IMG/VR virus record: IMGVR_UViG_3300021431_003088
Origin: a virus
Taxonomy: Duplodnaviria > Heunggongvirae > Uroviricota > Caudoviricetes
Length of the DNA: 56,778 nt
Strand: one strand, 5' to 3'
The notes below the pieces were generated by a model. It saw only the letters and a list, made by a program, of their open reading frames with translations, was not told the origin of the DNA and ran no database searches. Positions within the stretch are counted from its first letter, which is position 1. Every line of letters starts with the position of its first letter. Made by a program: the position numbers and the translations under genes. This document shows, piece by piece, positions 9,791-56,091 of this stretch.

Positions 9791-9872
9791 TTTTCTCCTA
9801 AATAACCTTAATGATTAATGTTTTGTAGGGTGGAATACCGTGCTTTGGTTTTTGTATTTCCCCTATATTACT

Positions 9873-9897
9873 TATATAAGTGTAGTGCGAAGTTTGG
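9873..9897 (-). promoter_or_regulatory. Full conserved promoter motif (mrr-prgI-virB4 operon)
   Basis: CCAAACTTCGCACTACACTTATATA on the minus strand. Confidence 0.75.
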
Positions 9898-17971: not shown

Positions 17972-18009
17972 ATTTTTCTCCTTCTGTTCTCTTATTTGTC
18001 CTTTATTTA

Positions 18010-18034
18010 TATATAAGTGGAGTGCGAAGTTTGG
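18010..18034 (-). promoter_or_regulatory. Full conserved promoter motif (virB6-virB1)
   Basis: CCAAACTTCGCACTCCACTTATATA. Confidence 0.75.
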
Positions 18035-18350: not shown

Positions 18351-18415
18351 ATAACATCTCTCCTTTCGTAATATTTTCTCCTTATTCACACAAAAGTTAT
18401 AAACCTTTTCATTTA

Positions 18416-18440
18416 TATATAAGTGTAGTTCGAAGTTTGG
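18416..18440 (-). promoter_or_regulatory. Full conserved promoter motif (virB2-like)
   Basis: CCAAACTTCGAACTACACTTATATA (one mismatch). Confidence 0.75.
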
Positions 18441-19775: not shown

Positions 19776-20912
19776 ATGGAATTTACAAAAACTGCTAAAA
19801 TCCAAATATATCCAAGTGAAATAGATAAGGCACTACTTATTGATACTATGAAATCATATGCTAATGCCTGTACTTTTGTGTCTAACTATATCTTTTCATC
19901 TAAGGATTTATCCCAAGCCTCTGTTCAGAAACATACATACGCTGATATAAGAAAAATGTATAATTTGCCTTCTCAGATGGCTTGTAATGTTGTTCGTACC
20001 GTTATAGGTTCTTATAAAACCAATAAAACAAACGGTTATGAATGGACTTTTTGTAAATACAATATTCCACAAGTTACTTTATCTTGGAATAGGGACTATT
20101 CTCTTACGCAAGATAAGTTTTCTATCGGTACGCTTAATGGTCGTATTAAATGTGACTATGCAATAAAGGGTATGGAAAAGTATTTTGATAAATCCATATA
20201 TACCTTTGGTGCTGCAAAAATTGTTTATAAGCACGACAAATTTTTCTTACATATATCAATCAAATATGATATTGATGCGCTTGAAGATACTGATGTTACT
20301 AATATCGTAGGTCACGATAGAGGTATTCGATTTTTAGTATCTTCTTATGATAGTAACGGCAAGACCACTTTTTATAGCGGTAACACCGTTAAGCAAAAAC
20401 GTGCTCATTATAAAACCTTAAGGAAAGAGTTACAACAAGTAAGGACTTCATCTTCCAGAAAACGTCTTAAAGCCATAGGTAAACGAGAAAACCGTTGGAT
20501 GCAGGATATAAACCACTGCATAGCTAAGGCACTCGTTGAAAATAATCCAGATGGCACTTTACACGTTTTAGAAGACTTGTCCAGCATACGTTCTGCGACT
20601 GAAAAGGTTCGTGTTAAGGATAAATATGTATCTGTTTCTTGGGCTTATTTTGACCTAGAAGAAAAACTTAAGTATAAAGCTCTTGAAAACAACCAAAAGG
20701 TTATTACTGTAAATCCTAAATACACTAGCCAAACTTGTCCTAAATGCGGTCATATTGAAAGCACCAACAGAAACAAAAGTAAACATATCTTTTGTTGTAA
20801 AAACTGTGGCTACACATCTAATGACGACCGCATAGGAGCTATGAACCTCTACCGTATGGGAATTGAGTACCTAGTAGAGTCACAAGTTAGTACATCTAAT
20901 TTGTGCAGGTAA
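19776..20912 (+). CDS. tnpB: RNA-guided endonuclease TnpB
   Basis: RuvC residues VGHDRG / LEDL / NDDRIGAMNL and zinc ribbon CPKCG...CKNCG are all present. Confidence 0.95.
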   Translation: MEFTKTAKIQIYPSEIDKALLIDTMKSYANACTFVSNYIFSSKDLSQASVQKHTYADIRKMYNLPSQMACNVVRTVIGSYKTNKTNGYEWTFCKYNIPQVTLSWNRDYSLTQDKFSIGTLNGRIKCDYAIKGMEKYFDKSIYTFGAAKIVYKHDKFFLHISIKYDIDALEDTDVTNIVGHDRGIRFLVSSYDSNGKTTFYSGNTVKQKRAHYKTLRKELQQVRTSSSRKRLKAIGKRENRWMQDINHCIAKALVENNPDGTLHVLEDLSSIRSATEKVRVKDKYVSVSWAYFDLEEKLKYKALENNQKVITVNPKYTSQTCPKCGHIESTNRNKSKHIFCCKNCGYTSNDDRIGAMNLYRMGIEYLVESQVSTSNLCR

Positions 20913-26385: not shown

Positions 26386-26446
26386 GAGATACCTCCATAT
26401 TTTTCTGCAAATAGTAAAATCTATTAAAAAAACATTTTCTACTTTA

Positions 26447-26471
26447 TATATAAGTGTAGTGCGAAGTTTGG
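26447..26471 (-). promoter_or_regulatory. Full conserved promoter motif (S8 protein)
   Basis: CCAAACTTCGCACTACACTTATATA. Confidence 0.75.
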
Positions 26472-26601
26472 AAGAAAAAATGTAATTAAAAAAGGAAACC
26501 AATCGAACAATTAGTTTCCTTTACTAATACTTTATTAATTTTGCGTTTGCAAACATATTGTGCTTATTGTAACAATCTTTGCAGTTGCAAATATTTTTTG
26601 C

Positions 26602-27474: not shown

Positions 27475-27703
27475 AACATTTGTTTCCTCCTCGCTTGTAT
27501 CCCTAAAATAATACCTTATATTATCAACTTTTTTACCCATTGTCAATGAATTTACTTCCGCCAAGGTTCTTTCCGTTTGCAAACTTTTTTATTATTTTTG
27601 CTTTCTATATATGATTATAGTACCTTTATTGAAAAAATACATATATTTTTTTTGAAAAATATTGAGTGAGAAGTCTCGGTTGCTTGTCTCCGAGATGAAA
27701 GTG

Positions 27704-32529: not shown

Positions 32530-33789
32530 TTAATCGAATTTAGGTATGTATGTTTCCTTTAATCTTTCTTCTAATGTTTCCTCATAGCTCTCATCTATAT
32601 CAGGCTCTTTACTTTCGATACCTAGTCTCTCGTTTACTGTTTTGTTCGTAAAGAGTGGTTTTATATTATCCCTGGTGACTCCTACGCCCTTTAGCTTCAC
32701 TAAGATGTTCTCTGGCAATGGTCTATCTACTATCTTTCCGTCTTGCACTACGATGATACATCTTCCTGATTTTAGTTCTCCGTCCGCTTCGGTCTTTACT
32801 CCTTCGGTTGTAAAGAAGCCTACTTGATCTATATATCTTATTATCTCGCCTTTTTCGTTATGCTTAAAATTTATCATTATTCCTACATTTACAAATTCGT
32901 AAATGTTCTTCAGGAACCTTTTTTCTATCGTGGAGTCGTTTACCATATTTAGCATTCGGCTCGGTATCTTCCTTACATCATCTGTATGCAGGGTGGTAAT
33001 ACCATTTACTCCTGTAGAAAAACCTTGCACTAGGTGCTTTACCTCGTTTCCCCTTGTCTCTGCTATCATTAGCCACTTTGGGTTTTGCTTCAGGCTTGCT
33101 ATGATAGCGTCTGAGTAGTCGAAGTTCTCTGTTGTTCGCATTTCCACACAGTCTGCTTCGGGCTTTAATTCCTTATATCGCCATTCCTTTACCGACTCGA
33201 TTGTTATTACTCGCTCTGAGTCCGGGATATATGTCGATATGAACTTCGCACACTCTGTCTTTCCCGCTCTTGGCTCTCCACAAAAAACGATATTCATATG
33301 CGCTTTTACGCAGTTTGCCATTAGGCTTAGTATCTCTTTTGAACAGTACAGTGTATCTATAGCATACTTCTCTGTTATTCTTGCTTTTGGGGGCGTCTTT
33401 CTTATACAGATACTTGTTCCGTTTGTGGCGATTGAGTCATGCACTACTGATATTCGTAGTTCATCTGTCTCTGTTTCTACCACAGGTGTTAATGGATTTA
33501 TCTCTACCTGCTCATGATCGGCTATCTGTATCGCAAAGTTTCTTATCCATTCTTCTGTTAGTAGTGGCTCGTTTACATACCATCTCTCGTTCTTGGTATT
33601 TGTTAGCCATACCTTTTGGTTATAATTAAAATCTATGTCTGTTATATCTTCGTCTTCTACATATTTCTTCAGCGGGCCAAAGACTTCGTTATCGGCGAAG
33701 ATGTTGAATACCAATTCATTATTCTTTTCTTTTTCGTCTAGTTTCTTCAACAGTTCTTTTGTATCCATCGTTGGTTTATATTCGTTCAT
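32530..33789 (-). CDS. cpaF: CpaF/TadA pilus assembly ATPase
   Basis: Walker A GEPRAGKT, Asp box ITIE, 'LKQNPKWLMIAETRG', His box TTLH. Confidence 0.92.
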   Translation of the reverse strand: MNEYKPTMDTKELLKKLDEKEKNNELVFNIFADNEVFGPLKKYVEDEDITDIDFNYNQKVWLTNTKNERWYVNEPLLTEEWIRNFAIQIADHEQVEINPLTPVVETETDELRISVVHDSIATNGTSICIRKTPPKARITEKYAIDTLYCSKEILSLMANCVKAHMNIVFCGEPRAGKTECAKFISTYIPDSERVITIESVKEWRYKELKPEADCVEMRTTENFDYSDAIIASLKQNPKWLMIAETRGNEVKHLVQGFSTGVNGITTLHTDDVRKIPSRMLNMVNDSTIEKRFLKNIYEFVNVGIMINFKHNEKGEIIRYIDQVGFFTTEGVKTEADGELKSGRCIIVVQDGKIVDRPLPENILVKLKGVGVTRDNIKPLFTNKTVNERLGIESKEPDIDESYEETLEERLKETYIPKFD

Positions 33790-33870
33790 TCCTTTTTCCC
33801 TTTTCTCTTTAGTGTGTAGTTAACGGCGCATATGCGCCGCTTCTTTCCTATCCACTTAGTGCTGCTTTTT

Positions 33871-34041
33871 TTACTGCCCTGAGTTTGGTGTGATTTGCGG
33901 GGTCAGTGTATTCTTGATTAGACCTGTAAACGCATCTGTAACTGTTGTTTTTACAGCGTCCATCTGTAGTATTCCTACTACTAAAAAGATTGCGATTACT
34001 GTAATGATTGCTGGACCCCATTCCTTAATAATGTCTTGCAT
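33871..34041 (-). CDS. Probable major Flp-like pilin, 56 aa (not in ORF track)
   Basis: MQDIIKEWGPAIITVIAIFLVVGILQ...; strong RBS GAAAGGAG; followed by the GC hairpin CGGCGC-ATAT-GCGCCG, a typical pilin mRNA stabiliser. Confidence 0.8.
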   Translation of the reverse strand: MQDIIKEWGPAIITVIAIFLVVGILQMDAVKTTVTDAFTGLIKNTLTPQITPNSGQ

Positions 34042-34104
34042 ATGCTTTTTCTCCTTTCTTAGATTTAAGGGTTTTTATGTATAAACAATTTTCATTGTTG
34101 ATAC

Positions 34105-34641
34105 CTAATCTGATAAGTCGAGGGTTTCTAATAGTTCTAATGTATCCTTATCGCACGTCTCAGCTTCCTTTGACATTATGTGGATTGCCTCGTTATGCTC
34201 AAATCCTCGCCTGTACGGTCTATCTGTCGTTAGTGCTTCATACATATCTATTGTATGTAGCATCTTCGCTTTCCTTATTACTTCCTCTGTTGGGTTTACT
34301 TCTAGCTTTGTTAATGTCGGTACATGACTACCATGATGGTATAAGACTATCTGGCATATGTTTTCCTCAATCCCTATTCGCTTTAGCAACATATACCCTA
34401 TGTACGGGTGCAGGTCGATTATATCTCGCTCTAACTCTGTTAACCTATTAGGCTTGTCTATGATATTACTTGATATATAATACTTGCCTACATCATGCAC
34501 AAATGCTGCATAGCTTAACTCCTTATCTTTCATTCCGAGTTTATGCTCTACCAAGCACGCTATTTCCTGTACTCTTAATGAATGATTGAATGTCATTGCG
34601 TCTAGTGATTGCACTAGATCGTATGCTTCGTCTTTTAACAT
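34105..34641 (-). CDS. HD-GYP-like phosphohydrolase (GYP loop degenerate)
   Basis: HSLRV, HDVGK, HPYIG, YHH, DMYEAL and RPYR motifs present; HHExxDGxGYP replaced by HHGSHVP. Confidence 0.85.
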   Translation of the reverse strand: MLKDEAYDLVQSLDAMTFNHSLRVQEIACLVEHKLGMKDKELSYAAFVHDVGKYYISSNIIDKPNRLTELERDIIDLHPYIGYMLLKRIGIEENICQIVLYHHGSHVPTLTKLEVNPTEEVIRKAKMLHTIDMYEALTTDRPYRRGFEHNEAIHIMSKEAETCDKDTLELLETLDLSD

Positions 34642-34657
34642 ATTTCTTTCTCTCCTC

Positions 34658-35314
34658 TTATGTGATGTAGTTTGTCACCGTTACACATAGGGCGATCAGT
34701 GCGCCTAGCTTTATAACTGATGATACTATGAGGTGTTTTGTCCTTTTTGTTTCCTCTCCTAACTGTTTATTGTATTCATTCTTGATTAGGCCTTGCAGTT
34801 CTTCCTTATCCTCTTTTGTCTTTTCTGTTAGCTTATATTCCCTCTTATCGCTATACATATCTTCATCTGCTTCTTTCATCATTTCTTTTAGGCTCTTTCC
34901 TGCACCGCCTATTGAAAAACCTATGGCTGCGGATATGATTAGGTCTTTTTCTTTCGCTCTGTCATTCTCTTTCTCTAACTCTTCCTTGAAACGTTCCCTT
35001 AGCCTTTTGATTAACTCCTCGTCTTTTGCTTCCAGAATGGCTAGAAATTCGTCTCCACCTGTGCGATAACTGTTCTCACCAAATACCTTCATGATTGTCT
35101 TTGCTACACTTATTAGGAGTTTATCCCCCATTTCGTGGCCAAAGCTATCATTCATCTTCTTTAGGTTATTTGCGTCTATGCTTACTAGTGTTATCTCTCG
35201 TATGTCTAGATTTGACATATCATCTTCAAAGGCTTTTCTATTTTTTAGTTGTGTTAGGTTGTCGTGATAGGCTATATATTTTAAGTCTTCTTTTTCCATT
35301 TTTAACATCCTCAT
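34658..35314 (-). CDS. Diguanylate cyclase (GGDEF) with C-terminal TM helix
   Basis: DNLTQLKNR, DANNLKKMNDSFGHEMGD, RTGGDEF intact; likely real start 35299 (RBS GAGGA). Confidence 0.92.
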   Translation of the reverse strand: MRMLKMEKEDLKYIAYHDNLTQLKNRKAFEDDMSNLDIREITLVSIDANNLKKMNDSFGHEMGDKLLISVAKTIMKVFGENSYRTGGDEFLAILEAKDEELIKRLRERFKEELEKENDRAKEKDLIISAAIGFSIGGAGKSLKEMMKEADEDMYSDKREYKLTEKTKEDKEELQGLIKNEYNKQLGEETKRTKHLIVSSVIKLGALIALCVTVTNYIT

Positions 35315-35318
35315 CTTT

Positions 35319-35343
35319 TATATAAGTGTAGTGCGAAGTTTGG
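35319..35343 (-). promoter_or_regulatory. Full conserved promoter motif (GGDEF-HD-Tad operon)
   Basis: CCAAACTTCGCACTACACTTATATA, immediately after the sigma gene stop. Confidence 0.75.
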
Positions 35344-35344
35344 T

Positions 35345-36271
35345 CTACGCTCTTAATGTTTTTTTGTAATCTTGTATCTTTCTTGTGTGCTTTTCCTCTA
35401 CTGTTTTTGCAATTTTGGGGAAGTATCTGTCAAGTAGGCCCGAAAAGAACAATTTATATCCCGTTTCCTCTAGCGTGAAGCTGGAGTTGTATTTGTTCTT
35501 GATGTTATATTTATCCTCTATCTCGATTGCGTAAATATCGCACACTTCTAGCTTGAAGCTCTCTGCTTCTAGCTTCGTTAATATATTTCTTCCTATTGCT
35601 TCATCTAACATAGCTGTTAGATTGGCTAGTATATCTACTTTCTCGTAGTCCTCTGAGTTTGAACCCTTATCTTCTAGCTCTACAGCACTCTCGTCTTTCT
35701 CTAGATTGGTATGTGTTACCTCTACGTCTGAGTTCTTCTGAAAGTAATATATCCAAAGTGCATCAAATGTACTTCTTAGTACATTTCCTGTGTAGTTATG
35801 CTTATTTAGGTACTCTAGCGCTTCCTCCTTGTGCGGGCTACACTCGTTTGCGTTACTTGTGTCTATCCCCGCTTCCTCGAAGTATTTCTTTATCAAGATT
35901 AAATATCTTTTTTGCGTATCGCTTATCTTCACTACACTTAGTTTTCTCGCTTCGTGGTACACATTGGTCGATACTTTTCGTGAGATATAGGTGCTATATT
36001 TTGCTTTTTCCTCATCATATTTATCTAGCACCTCTAGCTCTGGGTTTATGATTCTATTTAGGTAAATCTCCGAGCTTATGTCGTCTATCTTGTCTTGTGT
36101 GATACCTAGTGGCGATTTGCTTTTTATGTAGTTTCTCGTGACTATCTTTACATAATCATATGTTAGTGCGTCTACTTCTTCTTTCAGCGCCTTTTTCTTC
36201 TCTTCGTTTGTTTCTTTCTTGTACTCTATCGCTTTCTCATTTAGTTTTTCTGTTAATTCCTTTGAAGTCAT
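35345..36271 (-). CDS. Divergent sigma-70-family RNA polymerase sigma factor
   Basis: Region 2-like 'YDYVKIVTRNY...DDISSEIYL...LDKYDEEKAKYSTYISRKV' (compare KFDxxKGxKFSTYAxWWI); region 4-like 'LTKLEAESFKL...FTLEETG'; ATGA overlap with the upstream ORF at 36268-36271. Confidence 0.7.
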   Translation of the reverse strand: MTSKELTEKLNEKAIEYKKETNEEKKKALKEEVDALTYDYVKIVTRNYIKSKSPLGITQDKIDDISSEIYLNRIINPELEVLDKYDEEKAKYSTYISRKVSTNVYHEARKLSVVKISDTQKRYLILIKKYFEEAGIDTSNANECSPHKEEALEYLNKHNYTGNVLRSTFDALWIYYFQKNSDVEVTHTNLEKDESAVELEDKGSNSEDYEKVDILANLTAMLDEAIGRNILTKLEAESFKLEVCDIYAIEIEDKYNIKNKYNSSFTLEETGYKLFFSGLLDRYFPKIAKTVEEKHTRKIQDYKKTLRA

Positions 36272-36570
36272 ACGCAACTACCCCCGAAGAAACATTCCAT
36301 ATCGAAGTCTTCGTCTTCGTTTCTTACTGTTCTTAAGTCGGATTTGAAAAAGTGGTTCTTCTCAATACTACTTCTATTTCTCCTCTGCTTATCGTTATGA
36401 ATTTCATTCCAACCCCTCTCTATTACTAGCCGTGAAAATGCGGGTAGTGTTAGCTCGGGATTGCTCCTTACCAAGCATTTATACACTAGTTCCATGCTCC
36501 AGTTATAGTTACAATACAGCTCCCTTGCCTCTTCTAATGTGATCGCTTCTAAATAACCCTGTCCCTTCAT
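36268..36570 (-). CDS. Hypothetical 100-aa protein translationally coupled to the sigma gene
   Basis: RBS GAGGAGGAG before ATG 36570; stop overlaps the sigma ATG. Confidence 0.75.
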   Translation of the reverse strand: MKGQGYLEAITLEEARELYCNYNWSMELVYKCLVRSNPELTLPAFSRLVIERGWNEIHNDKQRRNRSSIEKNHFFKSDLRTVRNEDEDFDMECFFGGSCV

Positions 36571-36610
36571 TACTCCTCCTCTTTCCGCTCGCAAAGTTTG
36601 TTTGCTTTTG

Positions 36611-36835
36611 TCAATTCTTGACGCAAAAAAAATAGAAGTGTATCTCGTTTTGGCTTATGTCTAATGCCCTGCACCACCTATCTATTGTTTTTAGTTCTAA
36701 GCTCTTATTATTACTTATTAACTTCTTTACATAGTCTGGTGCTTGCCCTACTTCTTTCGCAAAACTCTCTACGCTTCCATACTTTTCTTCTATTCTTTTT
36801 GTTAATCTTCTGTAATCGTATTTATATACTTTCAT
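36611..36835 (-). CDS. Cro-like HTH protein (DUF739-like)
   Basis: 'YDYRRLTKRIEEKYGSVESFAKEVG...IDRWCRALDI..NEIHFYFF' matches the phage DUF739/Cro pattern. Confidence 0.85.
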   Translation of the reverse strand: MKVYKYDYRRLTKRIEEKYGSVESFAKEVGQAPDYVKKLISNNKSLELKTIDRWCRALDISQNEIHFYFFCVKN

Positions 36836-36895
36836 CCTTTTTTCCTTTCCTTTACTGAAAATACCTTTTGTTACGATTGTAAAAACTACTTCCTT

Positions 36896-36973
36896 ATACT
36901 ATCATTTTAATTTTCGTCTGTCAATCTTTTTTGCCTTTGCAAACTTGATTTTTTTTCATTTGTAAACTATAAT
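36896..36973. promoter_or_regulatory. Back-to-back sigmaA promoters of a cI/cro-like switch
   Basis: Minus: TTGACA(36924-36919)-17-TAGTAT. Plus: TTGATT(36945)-17-TATAAT(36968). CTTTGCAAAC lies between the -35 boxes. Confidence 0.7.
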
Positions 36974-37025
36974 TTACTTATATAAAAAGTTTTTTTGCAA
37001 TAATAATTGAAAGGAGGTAGTTATT

Positions 37026-37406
37026 ATGAGCAAATTAGTTAAAGTTAGTTCTAGTAATGACCGCATTAGAAAGATTATCGACATGAAGAATCTTACTCTT
37101 ACTCAACTTAGTAACATGACTGGTGTTGCGGTTTCTTCTATCTCCTTATATGTTAATAACAAGCGTACTCCTGCACAAAATTCTATTATGGCTATCTCCT
37201 CTGCCCTTAACATCAACCCTGCTTGGCTTATGGGATATGATGTACCAATGGAGCAATTATTCCTTCACGATGTGATTGACAATATTACGCCTGATTCTGA
37301 TTGCGATTCTAAACTTATTGAACTCATTAAGATTGCACAAGGTCTTGACCAGAAGTGCATCAACATTCTTATTGATGTGGCTAATTCTCTTGAAAAAAAC
37401 ATCTAA
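37026..37406 (+). CDS. XRE-family (cI/ImmR-like) repressor
   Basis: 'RIRKIIDMKNLTLTQLSNMTGVAVSSISLYVNNKRTP...ALNINPAWLMGYD'; divergent from the cro-like gene. Confidence 0.92.
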   Translation: MSKLVKVSSSNDRIRKIIDMKNLTLTQLSNMTGVAVSSISLYVNNKRTPAQNSIMAISSALNINPAWLMGYDVPMEQLFLHDVIDNITPDSDCDSKLIELIKIAQGLDQKCINILIDVANSLEKNI

Positions 37407-37425
37407 TCAGACCTTGCGCTTAGTA

Positions 37426-37641
37426 TTATGACTTGCTTAATATGTCTACATCCTCTGCGTTCATGCCTTTCTCTGTCTCTTTTGCTGCAAACTCTACGGT
37501 CCAGCCCTTCTTTAAGAACCTAAAGCCCTCTGCGTTAATCTGATTGTGATATACGAAGTAGTTCTCTCCGTCATCGCCCTTAATGTTTCCAAATCCTCTT
37601 TGTGGTTGATACCACTCTACTGTTCCTTTTATCTTCTCCAT
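37426..37641 (-). CDS. Cold-shock domain protein
   Basis: KGTVEWY, RNP1-like RGFGNI, RNP2-like YFVYHNQI, 'GFRFLKKGWTVEF'. Confidence 0.92.
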   Translation of the reverse strand: MEKIKGTVEWYQPQRGFGNIKGDDGENYFVYHNQINAEGFRFLKKGWTVEFAAKETEKGMNAEDVDILSKS

Positions 37642-37664
37642 TCTTCTTTTCTCCTATCTCTTTT

Positions 37665-38315
37665 TTAAAAATTTCCTAATACTATGTGCAATATCCCTAC
37701 TACCACTAACGCAGCATACGGTACACATAGTTTTATTAGCTCTTTCTTCTTATTCTCTTCTTCCCATTTTTTCTTATCTGCTCCTATTACTTCTACTTCT
37801 GCTTCTTCCTTTAGCATCTCGTATATTTTACAGAAGCTCTCGTAATCGTATTGCTCCCCATTAACTTTGAAGATATTTGCATCTACTATGTTTTCGTCAA
37901 TGATTATCTTGCTATACTTTTTATCTTCTCGTAGCTTTATATAGAACGCCCTCGTTTTCTCGTCCTCTATTATGCTTTTTATCTCCGGTATCTGTATGTC
38001 ACATACTTCGTATGTATCCTTTGTAGTTTGATGCACATACAGGTATCCTTCTGATATTTTCTTTGATACTATATTTATCTCTGACTCTGTTATGTCTGTT
38101 ATTCGCTCTTTCGCTTTCCTGAGTCTTTTTATTATGGTTCGCAAGTTTACCGTGGATACTACAACTGCTACTACTAATGTTATTATCATTCTTTCCTGCA
38201 TACTGAAAAATATTGTCACCATTAAGGCTATTACTGTTGCTATCGCATACACGGTATAACTTTGCTTTATATTTAGTTCCTCTAGTATCTTCTCTTTTTG
38301 CGGCTTTATATTCAT
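37665..38315 (-). CDS. Hypothetical membrane protein
   Basis: Two N-terminal and one C-terminal TM helices. Confidence 0.75.
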   Translation of the reverse strand: MNIKPQKEKILEELNIKQSYTVYAIATVIALMVTIFFSMQERMIITLVVAVVVSTVNLRTIIKRLRKAKERITDITESEINIVSKKISEGYLYVHQTTKDTYEVCDIQIPEIKSIIEDEKTRAFYIKLREDKKYSKIIIDENIVDANIFKVNGEQYDYESFCKIYEMLKEEAEVEVIGADKKKWEEENKKKELIKLCVPYAALVVVGILHIVLGNF

Positions 38316-38338
38316 TTTATAAACCCCTTTTTCTTTTC

Positions 38339-39229
38339 TTAATTATTTCGTCTGGCAATTCGATTTACTACTCCAAATGCTAAGTGTGAGTTCTTATCCA
38401 TCTTTGTGCAGATGAAGATTACTTCGTCATTTATCTCTGGTAATGGTGTTGGTCCTGCGTACTGGTACGCTATAGCGTTTACTCCCGCTTTTAGTCTGAT
38501 ATAATATGTTGGGCCTTCTCGTCCAGTTACTGTGCCTAGATACCTGCCGTTGACCGAACAGTTGACATTATCCTGCTTCTTTAGAGATTTTGACTCCACC
38601 TCTATCTTTACTTCACCGTCTTCCTTGATCACAATCTTTTCCATTCGCACATCTAGCACTTGACCAATGAAGTATCTATCCCTTGCATTTGATATCCACT
38701 CCGGATCGAGCCTATTGCACCGTACAAAACACTCAGCTCCCATTACCTCTACTCGCACCGCTGTGTCACCTACGGCTGTTACTCTCGCTTCTACTATGTC
38801 GTTCTCATTGATTCGTGATTTGCCTTGCTTATTTGGTAAATAGTATTTCTCTATCTTTCTCTGCATTGCCTTGGCTCTTGAGCCAATACACTTTCTCTCT
38901 TTGTCATCATAGTCTGTTACTACAAAGTCAATGTCTGAACCTATCATTGATGACATGATTCGGGATATTCTCTCTTTTGAGGATTTCTCCCCAAGATTAA
39001 TATTCATCTCTGTCATAGGTATTACTACCCTATACCCATCGTAGTATGCTACACCTACTACAATGGACTCTGTTTTTGATATTCGCATTGGCTCTACTGA
39101 GTCCAACACTCCTGTTAGATACTCTTTCTTTGATTTCTTGGAAGTCTTTAATTCCTCCCAGGCCTTATCCGACTTATCCTTTGTCTTACTTCTTGTTCCG
39201 TCTGGATTGATTGTTATTACATTTTCCAT
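38339..39229 (-). CDS. Multi-S1-domain (ribosomal S1-like) nucleic-acid-binding protein
   Basis: About three OB/S1 repeats, e.g. 'VEARVTAVGDTAVRVEVMG...YFIGQVLDVRM'. Confidence 0.75.
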   Translation of the reverse strand: MENVITINPDGTRSKTKDKSDKAWEELKTSKKSKKEYLTGVLDSVEPMRISKTESIVVGVAYYDGYRVVIPMTEMNINLGEKSSKERISRIMSSMIGSDIDFVVTDYDDKERKCIGSRAKAMQRKIEKYYLPNKQGKSRINENDIVEARVTAVGDTAVRVEVMGAECFVRCNRLDPEWISNARDRYFIGQVLDVRMEKIVIKEDGEVKIEVESKSLKKQDNVNCSVNGRYLGTVTGREGPTYYIRLKAGVNAIAYQYAGPTPLPEINDEVIFICTKMDKNSHLAFGVVNRIARRNN

Positions 39230-39268
39230 TTCTTCTTTTCTCCTTTTATTTTTTGCGATTTGGAACTA

Positions 39269-39318
39269 GAATACCCTGAAGGGCATTTCCTACTTTGGAA
39301 TACCCTAAAGGGCATTCC
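39269..39318 (-). repeat. Tandem pair of palindromic hairpins in 5' UTR
   Basis: GAATACCCTGAAGGGCATTTC (39269) and GGAATACCCTAAAGGGCATTCC (39297). Confidence 0.7.
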
Positions 39319-39336
39319 TTGTCTCGCTCTATCTTT

Positions 39337-39361
39337 TATATAAGTGTAGTGCGAAGTTTGG
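39337..39361 (-). promoter_or_regulatory. Full conserved promoter motif (S1-membrane-Csp operon)
   Basis: CCAAACTTCGCACTACACTTATATA. Confidence 0.75.
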
Positions 39362-39363
39362 TA

Positions 39364-41793
39364 TTATTTATTGAACCTTTTCTTGTTCTCTTTCTTGATT
39401 AGCGGTATCGCTCCCCTCTTTAATTCTACCGACATCTCTTCTATATCTTCCTCTGTGGCTTTGATTTTTAACTCGTTTACAGGGGTTGTCTTTAGTCCAT
39501 CTTTTATCTTTGGATTAAGTGGCTCACTAAATACTTTCTCTACCTGCTCGTCTGTTAACTTCTCTGCGTCCTTTGGTAGTTTTGTTGCTTTTCTCTGCGA
39601 GGTATTTTCTATTTCCTCGGAATATCTCTGTGAGACATTCCCTATTTCGTCTGCGTACCTTGTCTCTTTATATTTCTTACCCTTATCTAGCAACACGCCC
39701 TTTACTACGCTTATTTTTGCTTTGCTTTCCTCTTTTATCTCTATGCCATTAGGGTTTACCATCGCTAGTGGATTATCTGCTAATAATGGTTGTCCGTTTG
39801 GTGTTTTACCTTCTGCTTCATATTTCTTCTTTAGTTCTTTTACTTCCGCTATTAGCTTACTTCTACTTGCGCCATATTTCTCTGTGTCTACTACGCACAG
39901 TCTTGTCATCTCGCTTCCGTCACTATCCTTTAGGGCAGGTATTCTATCCGAGTCACTTCCTACTAGCTCTAGCCACTCATCTGTTGTGATTACTTTATCT
40001 TTCTCTACTATCTCTCCAGTCATTAAGTCCATGCCGTTTACTATTCGCCACTCAGGTACTAGCTCTGTTGATACTACCTTTCGCATTAGTAGTGCTTCGG
40101 GATGTCTACTATAATCGAATTTCTTTAGCTTGATTGGCATTTTCGCATTCACTTGGAGGTACAACTCGTCTGGTGGATACCTTCTTAGTTCATCCTCATA
40201 CTCTAGTGGACGTTGACCATCTCCTAGTGTGCCGCTTGGTGATGCTAGAAATCCTCTTGACTCTATCCTGTCGCTTCTTACCTTTTGAGTTGCATTTCCC
40301 ATTAGTGTTGAGAAGTATTTACTCGTTACCGGGTCGTTACAACCCAAGTAAAGACTATAGTTACAGCCACCCATTATCTCTGTCGCCATGTTCTCTGTGT
40401 AGCGATTATAGAATTGCGGGATATTCTGTATCATTATATGTATTCCTATGTCAAACGACCTTGCTACTCCCAGCTTCTGTGCAAAGCCATCTATATATCC
40501 GACGTTTGGGAACTCGTCTAGGAAAAATTCTACCGGTATATCACATCTTTGGTGTGGTGTTGATTGTGCATACTTGAAGATTGTGTCAAACAGCATTGTG
40601 ATGATGGTTGCTCCTAGCATATTATAGGTTTGGTCTGATGCACTCATAACCAAAAACAGTGCTGTCTTCTTCTTTGCTATATCCTCTAGGTTTATGTCTG
40701 CCTTTCCTGTTATCTCCCTCACTCTCTCTTCATTGAAGATTCTGAGTCTTGAGCCTAGACCTAGTATCGCATTTCCTTGATTTGAACTTGAGCCTGAGAA
40801 CAGTACGTAACATCCTACTGCCTCTGACATCGGGTTTTGCGCTCTTAATTGGTCAAACATTATGTTTAATTCGTCTGGCTTCTTTGTTCTTAGAAGTTTA
40901 TACGCTTCTCCTATATTCCTCTTACCTACTGGGTATGTTTCATACACATACCTACACAATGCTTCTAGAAGGATTGCTTCTATGTTATTGAAGAAATCTC
41001 CCGGCTTCGCATCACCTGAGTTATTTATGATTGTGTTTACAATGGTTGGTATCTTTTGCTCGTCCTCAAATTCGCCTAGTATATCCCAACCGTTTGAGTT
41101 CCACAAGTTTACTAGGTTCCATATTACTACATGGTAGCCCTTCTTCTTTAGGTATGCTGCACAGTCGCTTGTTAGCTCGGATTTCGTATCCATTATTACC
41201 ATTGAGGCTCCGCTTATCGCTCCCTGTATTATCATACCTCTGATTAAGCCTCTCGATTTTCCTGTGCCCTGCGAGCCTGCGCCAAAGATGTTTCTATTAG
41301 TTACCTCTGCGTCCCTTTTCATTGCTACTATCTTTCCATCTTCTGTTGTTCCAAAGATGAAACCTTTTGTTTCACACGCAGAGTCTACTACATCTAGAAA
41401 TTCGCTATATTCATAAGGTTTTAAATATTTACTTGATCCGTATGTGTCGTTCCCTGAATATGTTAGCTTCTTTACTGGATCATTCTCTTCGTCTGTTAAG
41501 TCTCTTACTACGAATACTAGTGACGCTATGCTTAAACCGATGAACGAGAAGATGGTTATAAACCTCCCCGTACTACTCGTGAACGCATACTTGAAACACT
41601 TTAGAAACTCTATATGACCATTATTCGCTCCAAACAGTTGCGCTAAAAACCCTCCTATTATGATTGACAGTGTTAGCAAGGCTATTAGGATGGTTATTAT
41701 TACTCGCTTTTTCTCTCTTAGTAGCTCCTTATAGTATTTTACAAGCTCCTTCTTATCCATCTTTTGCAGGCGCTTAAATAAACTATCTGTCAC
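39364..41793 (-). CDS. virD4: VirD4/TraG type IV coupling protein
   Basis: Two N-terminal TM helices, Walker A GSQGTGKS, Walker B FFLDEF, 'ARSFDIGIHIMIQ'. Confidence 0.95.
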   Translation of the reverse strand: MTDSLFKRLQKMDKKELVKYYKELLREKKRVIITILIALLTLSIIIGGFLAQLFGANNGHIEFLKCFKYAFTSSTGRFITIFSFIGLSIASLVFVVRDLTDEENDPVKKLTYSGNDTYGSSKYLKPYEYSEFLDVVDSACETKGFIFGTTEDGKIVAMKRDAEVTNRNIFGAGSQGTGKSRGLIRGMIIQGAISGASMVIMDTKSELTSDCAAYLKKKGYHVVIWNLVNLWNSNGWDILGEFEDEQKIPTIVNTIINNSGDAKPGDFFNNIEAILLEALCRYVYETYPVGKRNIGEAYKLLRTKKPDELNIMFDQLRAQNPMSEAVGCYVLFSGSSSNQGNAILGLGSRLRIFNEERVREITGKADINLEDIAKKKTALFLVMSASDQTYNMLGATIITMLFDTIFKYAQSTPHQRCDIPVEFFLDEFPNVGYIDGFAQKLGVARSFDIGIHIMIQNIPQFYNRYTENMATEIMGGCNYSLYLGCNDPVTSKYFSTLMGNATQKVRSDRIESRGFLASPSGTLGDGQRPLEYEDELRRYPPDELYLQVNAKMPIKLKKFDYSRHPEALLMRKVVSTELVPEWRIVNGMDLMTGEIVEKDKVITTDEWLELVGSDSDRIPALKDSDGSEMTRLCVVDTEKYGASRSKLIAEVKELKKKYEAEGKTPNGQPLLADNPLAMVNPNGIEIKEESKAKISVVKGVLLDKGKKYKETRYADEIGNVSQRYSEEIENTSQRKATKLPKDAEKLTDEQVEKVFSEPLNPKIKDGLKTTPVNELKIKATEEDIEEMSVELKRGAIPLIKKENKKRFNK

Positions 41794-43509: not shown

Positions 43510-43551
43510 TTCTTTCTTTCCTTTCGTATTTGATACTTGTTCTATATTACT

Positions 43552-43576
43552 TATATAAGTTGAGTGCGAAGTTTGG
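43552..43576 (-). promoter_or_regulatory. Full conserved promoter motif (virD4 operon)
   Basis: CCAAACTTCGCACTCAACTTATATA. Confidence 0.75.
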
Positions 43577-46196: not shown

Positions 46197-46220
46197 TTAA
46201 TATTTCTCCTTTTTGTTTTT

Positions 46221-46244
46221 TATATAAGTTTAGTGCGAAGTTTG
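46221..46244 (-). promoter_or_regulatory. Full conserved promoter motif (HTH-DUF6100 operon)
   Basis: CAAACTTCGCACTAAACTTATATA; overlaps the last codons of the upstream gene. Confidence 0.75.
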
Positions 46245-46595
46245 ACCTTTCATTAGCTGGTTCTTTCGCTTAATTTCTTCTTTCTGTTCCTCTAATCTTT
46301 CCATTTCTTCGTACAAATATTGGATGGCTCTTACTAGTTTTTCTGCCTTTTCTGTGCCAGCTTTAGCGTAGGCAAAGCCTGCCCTGTTAACTGAAAAGTG
46401 AACACCGTTAATGATACAAAATTCTCCGTGCTTACCTCTAGTAGTTCCGATAGTCCAGAAGCCTTTCCCATCTACAGGGATAGAAACATATCCGTTTCTA
46501 ACCTCCATATACTGACCAAGTTTAATGTATCCATTAATGCTATATCTAAGTATTCTATTGTCGCCTGCTTTTAATATTTGAAAGTTCTTGTACAT
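46230..46595 (-). CDS. Hypothetical protein (121 aa)
   Basis: RBS GAAGGAG before ATG 46595. Confidence 0.75.
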   Translation of the reverse strand: MYKNFQILKAGDNRILRYSINGYIKLGQYMEVRNGYVSIPVDGKGFWTIGTTRGKHGEFCIINGVHFSVNRAGFAYAKAGTEKAEKLVRAIQYLYEEMERLEEQKEEIKRKNQLMKGQTSH

Positions 46596-48927: not shown

Positions 48928-48946
48928 TTTTTTTTGAAAAAGTCGT

Positions 48947-48969
48947 AAACTTCGCACTAAACTTATATA
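48947..48969 (+). promoter_or_regulatory. Full conserved promoter motif in plus orientation
   Basis: AAACTTCGCACTAAACTTATATA, 35 bp before a plus-strand gene. Confidence 0.75.
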
Positions 48970-49003
48970 AAAATAAAAGAAAGGAATAAAAAAGGAATTT
49001 ATT

Positions 49004-49690
49004 ATGAAAAAATCATTTATTTATCCTGCTGTTGTAGTATTAACTACTACTCTTTCGCTAATACCTTTTAATAGTTCTAGTCTTTTTAGCACAACTACTG
49101 CAAACACCAAGGTTGAAGTAGAAACAGTCGAAGAAAGACAAGAAGACACAAGCGAAACTGATGCTAAGAAAGAGGCTGAAGAGAAAGCCGAAAAAGAAAG
49201 AGCTGAAAAAGAAAAGGAAGAAGCGAAAGAAGCTGAGGAAAAGAAGGCACAGGAGAAAGAGAAAGCTGAAAAGGAAGCAAAGGAAAAAGCAGAAAAGGAA
49301 GAAAGCGAGAAAAAAACCGTATCTTCAGCATTCCCAGCACAATCTGTTAGTAATTCTGTAATTGAGCCTAATGGATTGCATGATGTTTTTGTATTTGCAG
49401 AACAACCCGAAAATGAAGATTTTAGAAATGCTTCAATTTATATGTTGAATACTGGGGAAACTGATGCAAATAAGGTTTTATCTGCTAATTGTGGAGTAAA
49501 ATACAACGACAATGATGTAAAGGTCAACAAGCAAACTAAATATACATTTGGGCTTTCTGAAAGAGAGATTAATGCAGCCATAGACCAATTAAAATATAAG
49601 AGAATAGAGTCAAAGAATTATGGTATTGCATTAAGGGTTGTGGAGTCTAATGGAATGTATTTGTTTGAAATGATTGAAATATACGAATAA
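49004..49690 (+). CDS. Secreted protein with Lys/Glu-rich stalk
   Basis: Signal peptide; KEAEEKAEKE repeats; small globular C-terminus; terminator at 49716-49752. Confidence 0.8.
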   Translation: MKKSFIYPAVVVLTTTLSLIPFNSSSLFSTTTANTKVEVETVEERQEDTSETDAKKEAEEKAEKERAEKEKEEAKEAEEKKAQEKEKAEKEAKEKAEKEESEKKTVSSAFPAQSVSNSVIEPNGLHDVFVFAEQPENEDFRNASIYMLNTGETDANKVLSANCGVKYNDNDVKVNKQTKYTFGLSEREINAAIDQLKYKRIESKNYGIALRVVESNGMYLFEMIEIYE

Positions 49691-49756: not shown

Positions 49757-50362
49757 CTAGTGAATTTTAAATTCTTGTTTATAATTAATATTTTCTAGCT
49801 TTTTCTTTTTTAAGAACTGTGTTGCCAACATAAGTATAAGTGATATATTTTCTATGATATTTTGTGAAAACAGTCCTATTCTATCAACTTCAAAATTTAC
49901 CAACAATCTTCCCTGTAATACTATAGTTGAAATTAGTAAACCATAGCTTACTGCTTGAAAAGCCTCTACTTTTTTGTTCTTGCATTCGTGCTTTATAGAA
50001 AGCATATTATTGCATATAATAATAATACTCATGAAAGTAACAAGCCAAGTGGATAGTGTCTGTGGCACTATACTTAATAAGTTACTATTCTCTCCCTTAA
50101 ATATTGATATAAGTATTAGTATAATATTTAATCCGATAGTTGCTACTGATATAAGTAGCTGTGATTTGTATATCATAGTAAGCTGAGCATTATTTATTCT
50201 AGCGTTTTCATCTTTAATATAATTATTTTTATTGATTTCTTCCTTAAGGTTTATCTCTTTTAATTTTTTAAATTTCTCAATAAAGGGCTCATATCTTTTA
50301 ATTGTTGCGTCTTTTTCAGACTTAATCATTTTTCTTTCTGATTCAAATAGTTTCTTTTTCAT
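49757..50362 (-). CDS. Hypothetical polytopic membrane protein
   Basis: ATG 50362; four TM helices; AT-rich. Confidence 0.65.
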   Translation of the reverse strand: MKKKLFESERKMIKSEKDATIKRYEPFIEKFKKLKEINLKEEINKNNYIKDENARINNAQLTMIYKSQLLISVATIGLNIILILISIFKGENSNLLSIVPQTLSTWLVTFMSIIIICNNMLSIKHECKNKKVEAFQAVSYGLLISTIVLQGRLLVNFEVDRIGLFSQNIIENISLILMLATQFLKKKKLENINYKQEFKIH

Positions 50363-50456
50363 AAAATATTTCCTTTCTAAAAATATAGGAGCATATTGCA
50401 AGGCTAGGGAAGTACAATATGCTCCACTACATCAGTGAATGATGCTTTTTCCTTTT

Positions 50457-50480
50457 TATATAAGTGTAGTGCGAAGTTTG
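50457..50480 (-). promoter_or_regulatory. Full conserved promoter motif
   Basis: CAAACTTCGCACTACACTTATATA. Confidence 0.75.
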
Positions 50481-50482
50481 AA

Positions 50483-54891: not shown

Positions 54892-56091
54892 ATGTCTAAA
54901 AGAGAGATAAAACCCTTTAAGCAAGAAAACCTTATGAAGTCTAACTTCTTCATAGGCAATAAGTACAAAGCTAGTATATACGAAAATAAAATTACATATA
55001 TAGCGATGTTAAAGATACAAAACAAGGAATATGAAGAGAAAGCGGACGGAATATATGTGTCTATGACAGCATCCGAACTAAAAGAGCAACTACAGAGTAA
55101 TAGTGGCTCTTTTTATGGTACATTAAAGACTGTGGCTAACGAAATGACTGGTAATAATTTTGGTATTGCAGATGATGAACACGAGAGATTTGAATTTATA
55201 ACTCTTATAAATAAGGCGTCATATAGTGACGGAGAGTTTGAGGTTAGGTTTGCAAACGACCTGAAACAAAACCTTGTAAACATAAAAAAGAACTTTACGA
55301 ACCTTCCGGCAGAAGTAGTTTTGAACTTTAAGAATAAATATTCTTTTCCGCTGTACCAATTCTTAAAATCACAATGTTATTATCCAGCAAGCTATAGAGG
55401 TGCTAGGGATAATGTTTTTGCAGTATCTATAGGTGTATCTGAACTAAAGCTAGATATGGGTGTTGTTAATTCTCAAATTGATGTAGTAAAGAAAGTTTTG
55501 GCAAATGGAAAAGGCACTAGAGCAGACTATGATAAAGCAGTAGCAGTATCGCCAGAGAAAATGTTTGAAAAGTGGGGAGATTTTGACAGAAGAGCATTAA
55601 AGCCAGCAATTAAGGAGATAAATGAAAAGTCGGATATATACGTGGAGTACAAGAAGAAGACAGCAGGAAAAGGCGGTAAGATTCGTGATGTGGAATTTAC
55701 TGTATGGCTTAATGGTGCAGAAAAGACTAATTACGAAAATGATCCAGTTGGATTGGAAGAGGGCGAGATAGTATCAAAGTTGTCTGATGAAGATAAATTC
55801 GTAAAAACACTAGAAATAGCCGAAGTATTAAAGCAAGTTGATTTGTTACTCAACTACGCAGAGATAGTATCTATTGCGGAAGAGGCGATTTACAATGTAG
55901 ATACAGTGAAGAAGGCTTGCTTAGTATATAAAAATGCCAAGAATGTAGATAACGCAGTTGGATTTATAATTTCGGCAATAAAAAAGGGGTATGAACCCAG
56001 CAAGTCAAGCAATAAGACAACAAACAAGTTTAATAATTTTGAAGAGAGAGAATATGATTTTGATGATTTAGAAAAGGTTTTATTAAAATAA
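54892..56091 (+). CDS. Rep_3 (RepB-family) plasmid replication initiator
   Basis: 'SNFFIGNKYKASIYENKI...FEVRFANDLKQNL...KYSFPLYQFLK...FDRRALKPAIKEINEKSDI'. Confidence 0.9.
   Translation: MSKREIKPFKQENLMKSNFFIGNKYKASIYENKITYIAMLKIQNKEYEEKADGIYVSMTASELKEQLQSNSGSFYGTLKTVANEMTGNNFGIADDEHERFEFITLINKASYSDGEFEVRFANDLKQNLVNIKKNFTNLPAEVVLNFKNKYSFPLYQFLKSQCYYPASYRGARDNVFAVSIGVSELKLDMGVVNSQIDVVKKVLANGKGTRADYDKAVAVSPEKMFEKWGDFDRRALKPAIKEINEKSDIYVEYKKKTAGKGGKIRDVEFTVWLNGAEKTNYENDPVGLEEGEIVSKLSDEDKFVKTLEIAEVLKQVDLLLNYAEIVSIAEEAIYNVDTVKKACLVYKNAKNVDNAVGFIISAIKKGYEPSKSSNKTTNKFNNFEEREYDFDDLEKVLLK

Follow-up and report, generated by a model that had tools for sequence, protein, structure and literature searches.

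Here we examine a divergent gene switch on a 56,778-nt stretch of DNA (IMG/VR record IMGVR_UViG_3300021431_003088; hereafter the window), corresponding in reverse complement to the greater part of one end of a 119-kb metagenomic contig. Within positions 35345–37406 lie the four genes that an earlier note on this DNA had placed there. On the plus strand, xre (37026–37406) encodes a 126-aa XRE-family repressor; divergent from it, on the minus strand, run a gene for a small Cro-like helix-turn-helix (HTH) protein (36611–36835; 74 aa), orf100 (36268–36570) and the gene for a 308-aa protein with sigma-like features, which we call sigma308 (35345–36271). The repressor carries an N-terminal HTH_3 domain (Pfam, 1.9e-10; also HTH_19 and HTH_26, with weak DicA/RstR/TrbA-like matches in NCBIfam) followed by ~55 aa without a known domain, while the Cro-like protein matches Pfam DUF739 (6e-08) and HTH_26 (6.9e-05). 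The gene orf100, a conserved partner gene, begins with an ATG behind GGAGG, and its TGA overlaps the ATG of sigma308 as ATGA at 36268–36271, as the earlier note had read.

The two transcription units are headed by back-to-back sigmaA-type promoters, each scoring 10/12 in a consensus scan: TTGATT-17-TATAAT before xre (36945–36973, plus strand) and TTGACA-17-TAGTAT with an upstream TG before the cro–orf100–sigma308 operon (36924–36896, minus strand). The sequence that the earlier note had seen between them is also there, the 20 nt that separate the two −35 boxes containing CTTTGCAAAC (36935–36944). Three TTTG(C/T)AAA-type sites are placed suitably for candidate operators shared by both promoters: TTTGCAAAC (36936–36944), between the −35 boxes, and TTTGTAAAC (36959–36967), in the spacer of the xre promoter, are copies 1 and 2 of a 23-nt tandem repeat (D1), and ATTGTAAAAAC (36876–36886, repeat D2) covers roughly positions +3 to +13 of the cro-operon transcript. 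In the window as a whole TTTGYAAAC occurs 12 times against 2.1 expected. Perfect palindromes GTTTGCAAAC at 26545–26554, 27575–27584 and 55248–55257, and single copies of TTTGCAAAC/TTTGTAAAC at 13655, 18340 and 28533, stand near the 5′ ends of several transfer-region genes; they share the operator-like word of the switch and may be further candidate sites for the XRE or the Cro-like protein.

A divergent repressor, a second small HTH gene and back-to-back promoters, the arrangement that marks a cI/Cro-type switch, are present in the window and in two sister lineages that we compared with it, L001 (12.6 kb) and L011 (a 23.5-kb contig). Genes and promoters alike thus support the earlier reading of a cI/cro-style switch heading an operon that ends in a sigma-like protein. 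An inducible repressor of the usual kind was not found: HTH is the only Pfam domain in the 126-aa protein, which shows no S24 peptidase domain, and no protease gene (ImmA-type partner) adjoins it among the called genes. The switch region also contains no LexA box. Without an S24 domain or a LexA box, SOS or mitomycin C induction is not indicated, so that the mitomycin C response suggested earlier loses its footing; the trigger of derepression is probably not SOS.

RNA data touch this locus at one place. Four metatranscriptome contig sets compared with positions 33000–40000 cover it within 37007–37278 only, which is no sign that the sigma or transfer genes are silent. In two studies, RNA-library contigs match 37025–37278 and 37025–37267, the 5′ ~250 nt of xre, with no differences, a weak hint that the repressor is expressed in gut samples. 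Both contigs begin one base before the xre ATG, which could reflect the edge of the assemblies or a 5′ end that is processed or leaderless; position 37025 was not taken as the 5′ end. A sampled-word run search returned no RNA library among the matches listed.

The 308-aa protein can be divided into a sigma2-like part (residues 1–113), a sigma3-like part (115–180), an acidic linker (181–205) and a sigma4-like part (206–308). By eye, KYDEEKAKYSTYISRKV forms a region 2.2–2.3 signature, and FTLEETGYKL resembles the start of region 4.2 in sigma70 (TLEEVG), followed by an insertion and a changed recognition helix; the description of a kept region 2 signature with a remodelled region 4 is therefore accurate. 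Structure comparison points the same way. The AlphaFold2 single-sequence model was poor (predicted local distance difference test, pLDDT, 47.5) and the two-sequence model reached 67.6. With the latter, the best 50 Foldseek matches in the PDB were all sigma chains (E 0.011–0.2, probability up to 0.90), and among Swiss-Prot models the best 30 were all sigma factors of groups 1–3 (SigF/G/A, RpoH; probability 0.72–0.98), with alignments that span residues 1 to ~290 (ends at 283–302). VIA-align placed residues 1–113 on the sigma2 domains of ShbA (Z 8.3, root-mean-square deviation 6.2, 110 aligned), BldN (Z 7.6, 3.0, 78 aligned) and sigmaE (Z 7.5, 4.4, 93 aligned), and residues 115–180 on a small helical domain. 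For the ESM Atlas model, six Sigma70_r2 families were the nearest structures (TM-score by row 0.20–0.56); the first feature neighbour scored 0.96, with Sigma70_r2 on 15% of its members. A sigma2 fold is thus recovered by both Foldseek and VIA-align despite E-values of at least 0.01, and the lack of a predicted region 2 fold, which the earlier note had named as fatal to its idea, is not what was seen, as the fold searches return only sigma factors. Sequence profiles gave no such match, a matter of detection method rather than of a functional feature: neither NCBIfam nor PHROG models matched the protein, and its best PDB profile matches, to sigma WhiG at region 2.2–2.3 (E 0.29–0.86), were not significant.

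Co-folding with the beta′ coiled-coil, proposed earlier as a check, gave a positive result in silico. Residues 1–182 of sigma308 with residues 1–420 of Bacillus subtilis beta′ scored 0.75, against 0.11 for the best of three controls. The mark applied is reached by 58 of 80 solved complexes and by two of 110 mismatched pairs, counts that are only rough because an alignment of our own was used. The runs share at least 76% of contacts, with a partner pLDDT of at least 76, and the predicted interface joins beta′ 249–287, the clamp helices, to sigma308 residues 31–38 and 56–77, including the invariant D64 and E68. The contact between region 2.2 and the clamp helices that is expected of a sigma-70-family member is therefore found in the model only, and since sigma–beta′ complexes have already been solved, this result shows likeness and not binding. 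The fold evidence is weak case by case, yet unanimous (80 of 80 top matches are sigma factors), and we consider it probable that the 308-aa protein is a derivative of the sigma-70 family.

The small gene upstream of it is harder to place. No family match was obtained for orf100 in profile searches, Pfam among them, and the Atlas leads are weak (HTH_7/HTH_23/terminase-small-subunit-like folds; scores 0.80–0.87, TM-score 0.38–0.48); a small HTH in the N-terminal two thirds is probable. At its C-terminus the family has a conserved acidic/aromatic tail, DEDxFFG (window 36268–36330; L001:4540–4593; L011:10910–10969). This tail resembles the short tails by which the single-stranded-DNA-binding protein SSB or phage co-activators hook onto partner proteins. 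Orf100 is possibly a DNA-binding or RNA-polymerase-binding helper.

The candidate targets of the sigma-like protein are a set of highly uniform promoter-like sites, which we counted both in the window and in the 85.9 kb of the contig that could be joined. The 12-mer ACTTATATAAAA, with up to one mismatch, occurs 16 times in the window against 2.2 expected, a count that none of 100 shuffles reached, and the extended 28-nt element CCAAACTTCGCACTACACTTATATA(A/T)AA has 10 copies in the window and 12 in the 85.9 kb. Each such full site consists of a box, AAACTTCGCAC, with an invariant TCG, lying 10 bases upstream of a −10-like core, CTTATATA; the orientation and distance of box and core are identical in 12/12. 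All 12 are co-oriented with the next gene and stand 27–115 nt before a start codon, several of them directly behind intrinsic terminators, and in these respects they behave like promoters of separate operons. The motif promoters reported earlier thus hold up as 12 near-identical, directional promoter-like sites before transfer operons.

The full site nearest the switch, CCAAACTTCGCACTACACTTATATAAAA (35316–35343, minus strand), begins 2 nt downstream of the sigma308 stop codon, at the head of a GGDEF–HD–pilin–ATPase operon; homologous sites occur at L001:5604 and L011:12011, and the sigma308 operon runs without a terminator into this site and the GGDEF/HD genes. On the other side of the switch, the site at 39334–39361 (minus strand) heads an operon of S1-like, orf216 and cold-shock-domain genes (39229–37426) and points head-on into xre. 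Further minus-strand sites lie before the Mrr-like and VirB4-like genes (9870–9897), directly behind an intrinsic terminator (18007–18034), at 18413–18440 (one mismatch in the box), before the gene of a 1712-aa protein (26444–26471), behind a terminator at the head of an operon ending with the VirD4-type coupling protein (43549–43576), before HTH_36-like and DUF6100-like genes (46218–46245) and before gene 49757–50401 (50454–50481). The sole full site on the plus strand (48945–48972) is co-oriented with gene 49004–49690 (plus strand).

Three other candidates for such sequences were set aside. A box-like sequence, CAAACTTTGCGAGC, between the cro-like gene and orf100 (36590–36603, minus strand) agrees with 10 of 14 box positions and is not followed by a core; not being conserved in L001, it was dropped as a box-related element. 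A promoter for a T7-like or YonO-like polymerase was dropped since no such gene was seen in 86 kb, and a sigma54 promoter because, although CGGCAC in L001 resembles TGGCAC, the window lacks the GG.

A second class of about 18 sites in the 85.9 kb has the same core with a T-rich stretch in place of the box (T-rich, then cAACTTATATAAATAAG). These core-only sites (window 3282–56522, and throughout the contig pieces L009 and L010) show no visible −35 element and often touch a terminator; they head ssb, Sak-type recombinase, topoisomerase, methylase, primase/helicase and PcfK/PcfJ genes, that is, functions of replication, recombination and establishment. Many contain the T4-late-like octamer TATAAATA. 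One of them, ACTTATATAAAA at 36976–36987 (plus strand), begins 3 nt after the −10 of the xre promoter, and the earlier note, which had seen it pointing into the repressor gene, proposed that sigma-driven repressor transcription might shut the circuit off. The site is present as described; it is, however, core-only, without the AAACTTCGCAC box of the transfer-gene promoters, and no core motif is found at that place in L001 or L011. Sigma-driven repressor feedback is therefore not a conserved design, and we do not retain it as the shut-off.

About 26 kb beyond the end of the window, on the same contig, lies a canonical small sigma gene, sigma178 (L010:2157–2693, minus strand; 178 aa, Sigma70_r2 5.8e-06). 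Upstream of it are a core-only-like site, ACTTATATATATAT, and a hairpin of 18 bp, and a 685-aa VWA-like gene with its own core-only site diverges from it. Sigma178 may read the shared core. The proposal that the switch-encoded sigma fires the motif promoters is accordingly sustained in part, in that there are 12 full sites whose box differs by lineage, and weakened in part, in that about 18 core-only sites have the same core and the element encodes sigma178 as well.

Comparison of the three lineages bears on both protein and sites. Gene order is kept in L001 and L011: S1-like, orf, cold-shock-domain, xre in the opposite direction, cro-like, orf95/96, sigma-like, GGDEF, HD, pilin-like and ATPase genes. 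Between the window and L001, the one pair for which all were computed, identity is 42% for the XRE protein, 43% for the Cro-like protein, 48% for orf100 and 46% for the sigma, against 54–78% for structural and neighbouring genes; that is, the four regulators diverged together. In L011 the sigma is 41% and orf100 47% identical to those of the window. The DUF739 Cro-like gene is present in all three at unchanged size, whereas the repressor varies in architecture, its length being 126 aa in the window and 95 aa in L011 (L011:9887–10174), while that of L001 (L001:3256–3873) has two tandem HTH domains in 205 aa. Counterparts of the cro-operon promoter are TTGACA-17-TAATAT in L001 and TTGACA-17-TATATT with TG in L011, and the operator-like layout of L001 is that of the window in a sequence of its own (TTTTTGTGAA / TTCGCAAAAA).

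The private-promoter box likewise differs by lineage, being AAACTTCGCAC in the window, TTCGGCAC/CTTCGCAC in L001 and AAATCGGT in L011. The homologous elements read CTTCGCACATAC or TTCGGCACTAC in L001 and AAATCGGT(A/G)NNAC in L011, each followed by CTTATATA; the core, the TCG ten bases upstream of it and their spacing are invariant in all three. In the sigma, the conserved blocks are regions 2.2–2.4 and 4.2, with signature residues kept, and the recognition helix varies at few positions (DRY, YEY and QEH). This pattern fits a specificity module; three lineages are too few for a statistical test of covariation.

Relatives of sigma308 are confined, within the protein collections searched, to the two other metagenomic lineages. 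An exhaustive search of 1.84 billion representative proteins gave one relative (47% identity), word searches (protein and alignment) of a 5.8-billion-sequence non-redundant index gave only the entries P0001 and P0002, and the third lineage, L011, was located by synteny. With the sigma alignment or the S1-like alignment nothing was found in GTDB species genomes or in IMG/VR, and a metagenome scan gave only L006, a fragment of the L001 lineage.

No phage structural genes were seen in the 86 kb read. The element is a Rep_3 replicon, as the earlier note had claimed, with Rep3_N/Rep3_C on 54892–56091, and also encodes ParA. It has a Gram-positive-type transfer set comprising a VirB4-like ATPase, PcfJ/PcfK, a lysozyme/amidase, a VirD4-type coupling protein and a T2SSE/VirB11-like ATPase. 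Animal gut and fermentation metagenomes make up the DNA sources in which at least one fifth of its sampled words occur. DNA and protein searches of the PLSDB plasmid records were both without a match, and neither PLSDB nor the GTDB species genomes yielded an isolate genome or plasmid record carrying the element. If our reading is right, it is a conjugative plasmid of uncultured gut or rumen Firmicutes. Two IS605-type OrfB/TnpB genes with a Cas12f1-like TNB domain lie on the plasmid, at window 19776–20912 (plus strand) and on piece L007:12896–14044, the latter adjoining a long gap without called genes.

More distant relatives, L012 and L013, were reached through the S1-like protein. They share the VirB4–DUF5697–DUF6100–VirD4–S1-like synteny, followed by sortase and SpaA-type pilin genes, and are without the switch/sigma308 module; L013, a metagenome-assembled genome in NCBI, has a canonical Sigma70_r2 gene downstream instead. 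In an hhalign comparison of that canonical sigma fragment with the sigma308 family, only a KFSTY motif aligned (probability 0.2).

We lean, with chances a little better than even, towards a repressor-gated sigma cascade for conjugation in which sigma308 acts at the 12 full promoters. With the circuit off, XRE repressor expressed from the gene's own sigmaA-type promoter would occupy the TTTG(C/T)AAAC-type sites, and those between the −35 boxes and over the leftward transcript start would keep the strong cro–orf100–sigma308 promoter shut. Should repression fail, host sigmaA–RNA polymerase would transcribe the operon; the DUF739 Cro-like protein would then oppose the repressor, and sigma308 would be made by translational coupling to orf100. 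As a very diverged three-domain member of the sigma-70 family, sigma308 would bind core RNA polymerase at the beta′ clamp helices, and the resulting polymerase would be directed to the 12 full promoters that head type IV secretion system (T4SS), pilus, adhesin, coupling-protein and cyclic-di-GMP operons. A further element may lie at the 3′ end of the repressor gene. The stop codons of xre and the convergent cold-shock-domain gene are 19 nt apart (37406–37426), and no terminator-like site or stable hairpin was found at 37370–37470, so that transcripts from the 39334 site could run antisense through xre into the sigma operon; such read-through would make a possible positive loop for that operon. 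L001 has an 8-bp hairpin between the same two genes, with a T-run that faces the xre transcript only.

Several observations weigh against this cascade. No sigma profile in Pfam matches the window protein or P0002 up to E 10, or the L011 orthologue up to E 5. The fold E-values are all 0.01 or worse, Z scores of 6–8 are common among helical proteins, and the VIA-align rows barely cover residues 181–308, which include the sigma4-like part. The co-fold result may reflect memory of solved sigma–beta′ complexes, and the beta′ used for it was a substitute taken from a different host. Conservation within sigma308 is highest in the sigma4-like HTH although the box it would read differs by lineage, and the conserved TCG stands at about −24, nearer the −10 than a normal −35 element. 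No full site occurs in 36272–36940, before the sigma operon, and the autoactivation typical of such sigmas is not evident. Finally, the plasmid has a second, canonical sigma in sigma178, and its full and core-only sites carry an identical core, ACTTATATA(A/T)A; either two unrelated sigma2 domains read one core, or one of them does not.

That last point invites an explanation in which one factor, sigma178 or a host sigma, reads the core at all ~30 sites, while an activator under the control of the switch, either orf100 or the HTH at the C-terminus of the 308-aa protein, binds at the box in the way of T4 MotA at −30, and sigma308 does not specify the promoters of the transfer regulon. Besides the shared core, it could draw on the real Sigma70_r2 match of sigma178 and the core-only-like site before that gene, as for an autoregulated sigma, on a box centre at about −24 to −30, which is activator-like, and on the weak small-HTH leads of orf100, which is conserved beside the gene. 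The 308-aa protein is, however, predicted at the beta′ clamp-helix site that any sigma needs, where it could not work together with sigma178 on one polymerase, and its whole length aligns with three-domain sigmas; we regard the one-factor scheme as unlikely. Of similar low likelihood is a two-tier programme with two sigmas on one core: sigma178 would read the ~18 core-only sites, including that of the repressor gene in this lineage, and sigma308 would use that core solely where the lineage-specific box ~10 bp upstream is recognised by its remodelled sigma4; orf100 might act as a gp33-like co-factor and antisense read-through from 39334 might lock the on state.

The box might alternatively be the operator of a plasmid-wide repressor, the XRE or the Cro-like protein, in the manner of KorA/KorB of IncP or ArtA of pSK41, the transfer promoters then depending on the core alone. 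Global plasmid repressors typically use such sets of near-identical 14-nt sequences, placed at many promoters, the box has CAAACTT in common with the inter-−35 sequence GCAAACTTGAT (36939–36949), and regulators and box diverge together between the window and L001. Yet the box is no palindrome and is single in each site, in contrast to the TTTG(C/T)AAAC-type repeats of the switch, and the switch region has no full box; the single orientation and fixed core distance, 12/12, fit a promoter element better than an operator, and we give this explanation little credence. We think it just as improbable that the 308-aa protein is no working sigma at all, being either a helical look-alike or a degenerate sigma that still attaches to RNA polymerase but does not guide it, for instance a decoy throttling host transcription during transfer. 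Its lack of a hidden Markov model match, weak fold E-values and middling Z scores would suit such a protein, as would the missing WW pair of region 2.3–2.4 (TYISRKVSTNVY), and toxicity by competition for core polymerase is known for the sigma factors SigN and Sig7-8 (PMC10601692; bioRxiv 10.64898/2026.10.01.756105). Against this stand the unanimity of the fold matches, the signature residues kept in regions 2.2, 2.3 and 4.2 as conserved blocks in three lineages, and a directional private promoter set without another obvious reader on the same element.

The proposed cascade has counterparts in several known systems. In phage lambda (cI/Cro, leading to Q) and in SXT (SetR, leading to SetCD), a divergent repressor/Cro pair with shared operators gates a master activator, and SetCD activates several dispersed tra promoters. 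The present switch is alike in that a divergent repressor/Cro pair would gate a downstream master activator of late or transfer genes; it differs in that the gated regulator is sigma-like rather than an antiterminator or an FlhDC-type activator, and in that the repressor is without an S24 autocleavage domain. Phage sigma systems, as far as they are cited in bioRxiv 10.64898/2026.10.01.756105, include T4 gp55/gp33 with its late promoters (TATAAATA) and SPO1 gp28 and gp33/34. There, as here, a mobile element combines a very diverged sigma with private promoters that are short and highly uniform, and the sigma is accompanied by a small partner protein, here orf100 with its acidic/aromatic tail. 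The present element is instead a Rep_3 plasmid with a T4SS, and a gp33-like or clamp-linked mechanism would apply to it only by analogy.

The closest precedent comes from Tn916, a Firmicute mobile element in which a sigma encoded by the element itself governs the conjugation genes positively, as their master regulator. Its orf7 and orf8 form a split sigma, Sig7-8, which associates with RNA polymerase, activates its own promoter, Psig7, and is required for both excision and conjugation (Gomberg and Grossman, October 2026, bioRxiv 10.64898/2026.10.01.756105; earlier, Celli and Trieu-Cuot 1998, as represented in that preprint). There too an HTH repressor-type gene (Orf9) lies beside the sigma, and a small HTH-like partner gene adjoins the sigma gene. 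Whereas Sig7-8 is split into two subunits, sigma308 is one chain that aligns from sigma2 through sigma3 to sigma4, and no sequence similarity between the two is detectable. Tn916 uses one main, autoactivated promoter, Psig7, and reaches its transfer genes by circularization and an antiterminator; here 12 dispersed promoters each head a terminated operon of their own, and the sigma308 operon is served by a sigmaA-type promoter that the divergent repressor/Cro pair would control, with no full site before it through which Sig7-8-type autoactivation could act.

A plasmid-encoded alternative sigma whose main sigmaA-dependent promoter is held off by a repressor, with a regulon on the same plasmid, is likewise known from SigN (ZpdN) of the B. 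subtilis plasmid pBS32, which lies behind a LexA-repressed sigmaA promoter (PMC6751061; PMC10601692). Host LexA and DNA damage gate SigN, a feedback promoter depends on SigN itself, and the outcome of its regulon is hyper-replication and cell death and not conjugation; the present plasmid encodes its own repressor, which is paired with a Cro-like gene, the switch contains no LexA box, and no full site precedes the sigma operon. With Tn916 Sig7-8 beside Orf9 and the LexA-gated SigN of pBS32 already described, the principle of control is known, and the earlier view of an architecture without a known counterpart does not stand. What is new here is the combination of a single-chain orphan sigma, a plasmid-borne repressor/Cro gate, many dispersed identical promoters and two promoter tiers.

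The three lineages, each with a different box and with sigmas that are 41–47% identical, form a natural specificity series that could show how sigma4 variants read DNA, and such a series would offer orthogonal sigma/promoter pairs for engineering. For Gram-positive plasmids, the known control of conjugation mostly involves one operon that is governed by a repressor, a pheromone or an antisense mechanism. A 2019 review names no element-encoded sigma (PMC6540685). If the proposed cascade is true, the entire transfer apparatus of a gut Firmicute plasmid answers to one private sigma, which acts through 12 copies of its own promoter and is itself governed by a phage-type switch; the principle known from Tn916 (Sig7-8) and pBS32 (SigN) would thereby gain a further case, and a sigma lineage that is invisible to sequence models would come to light.

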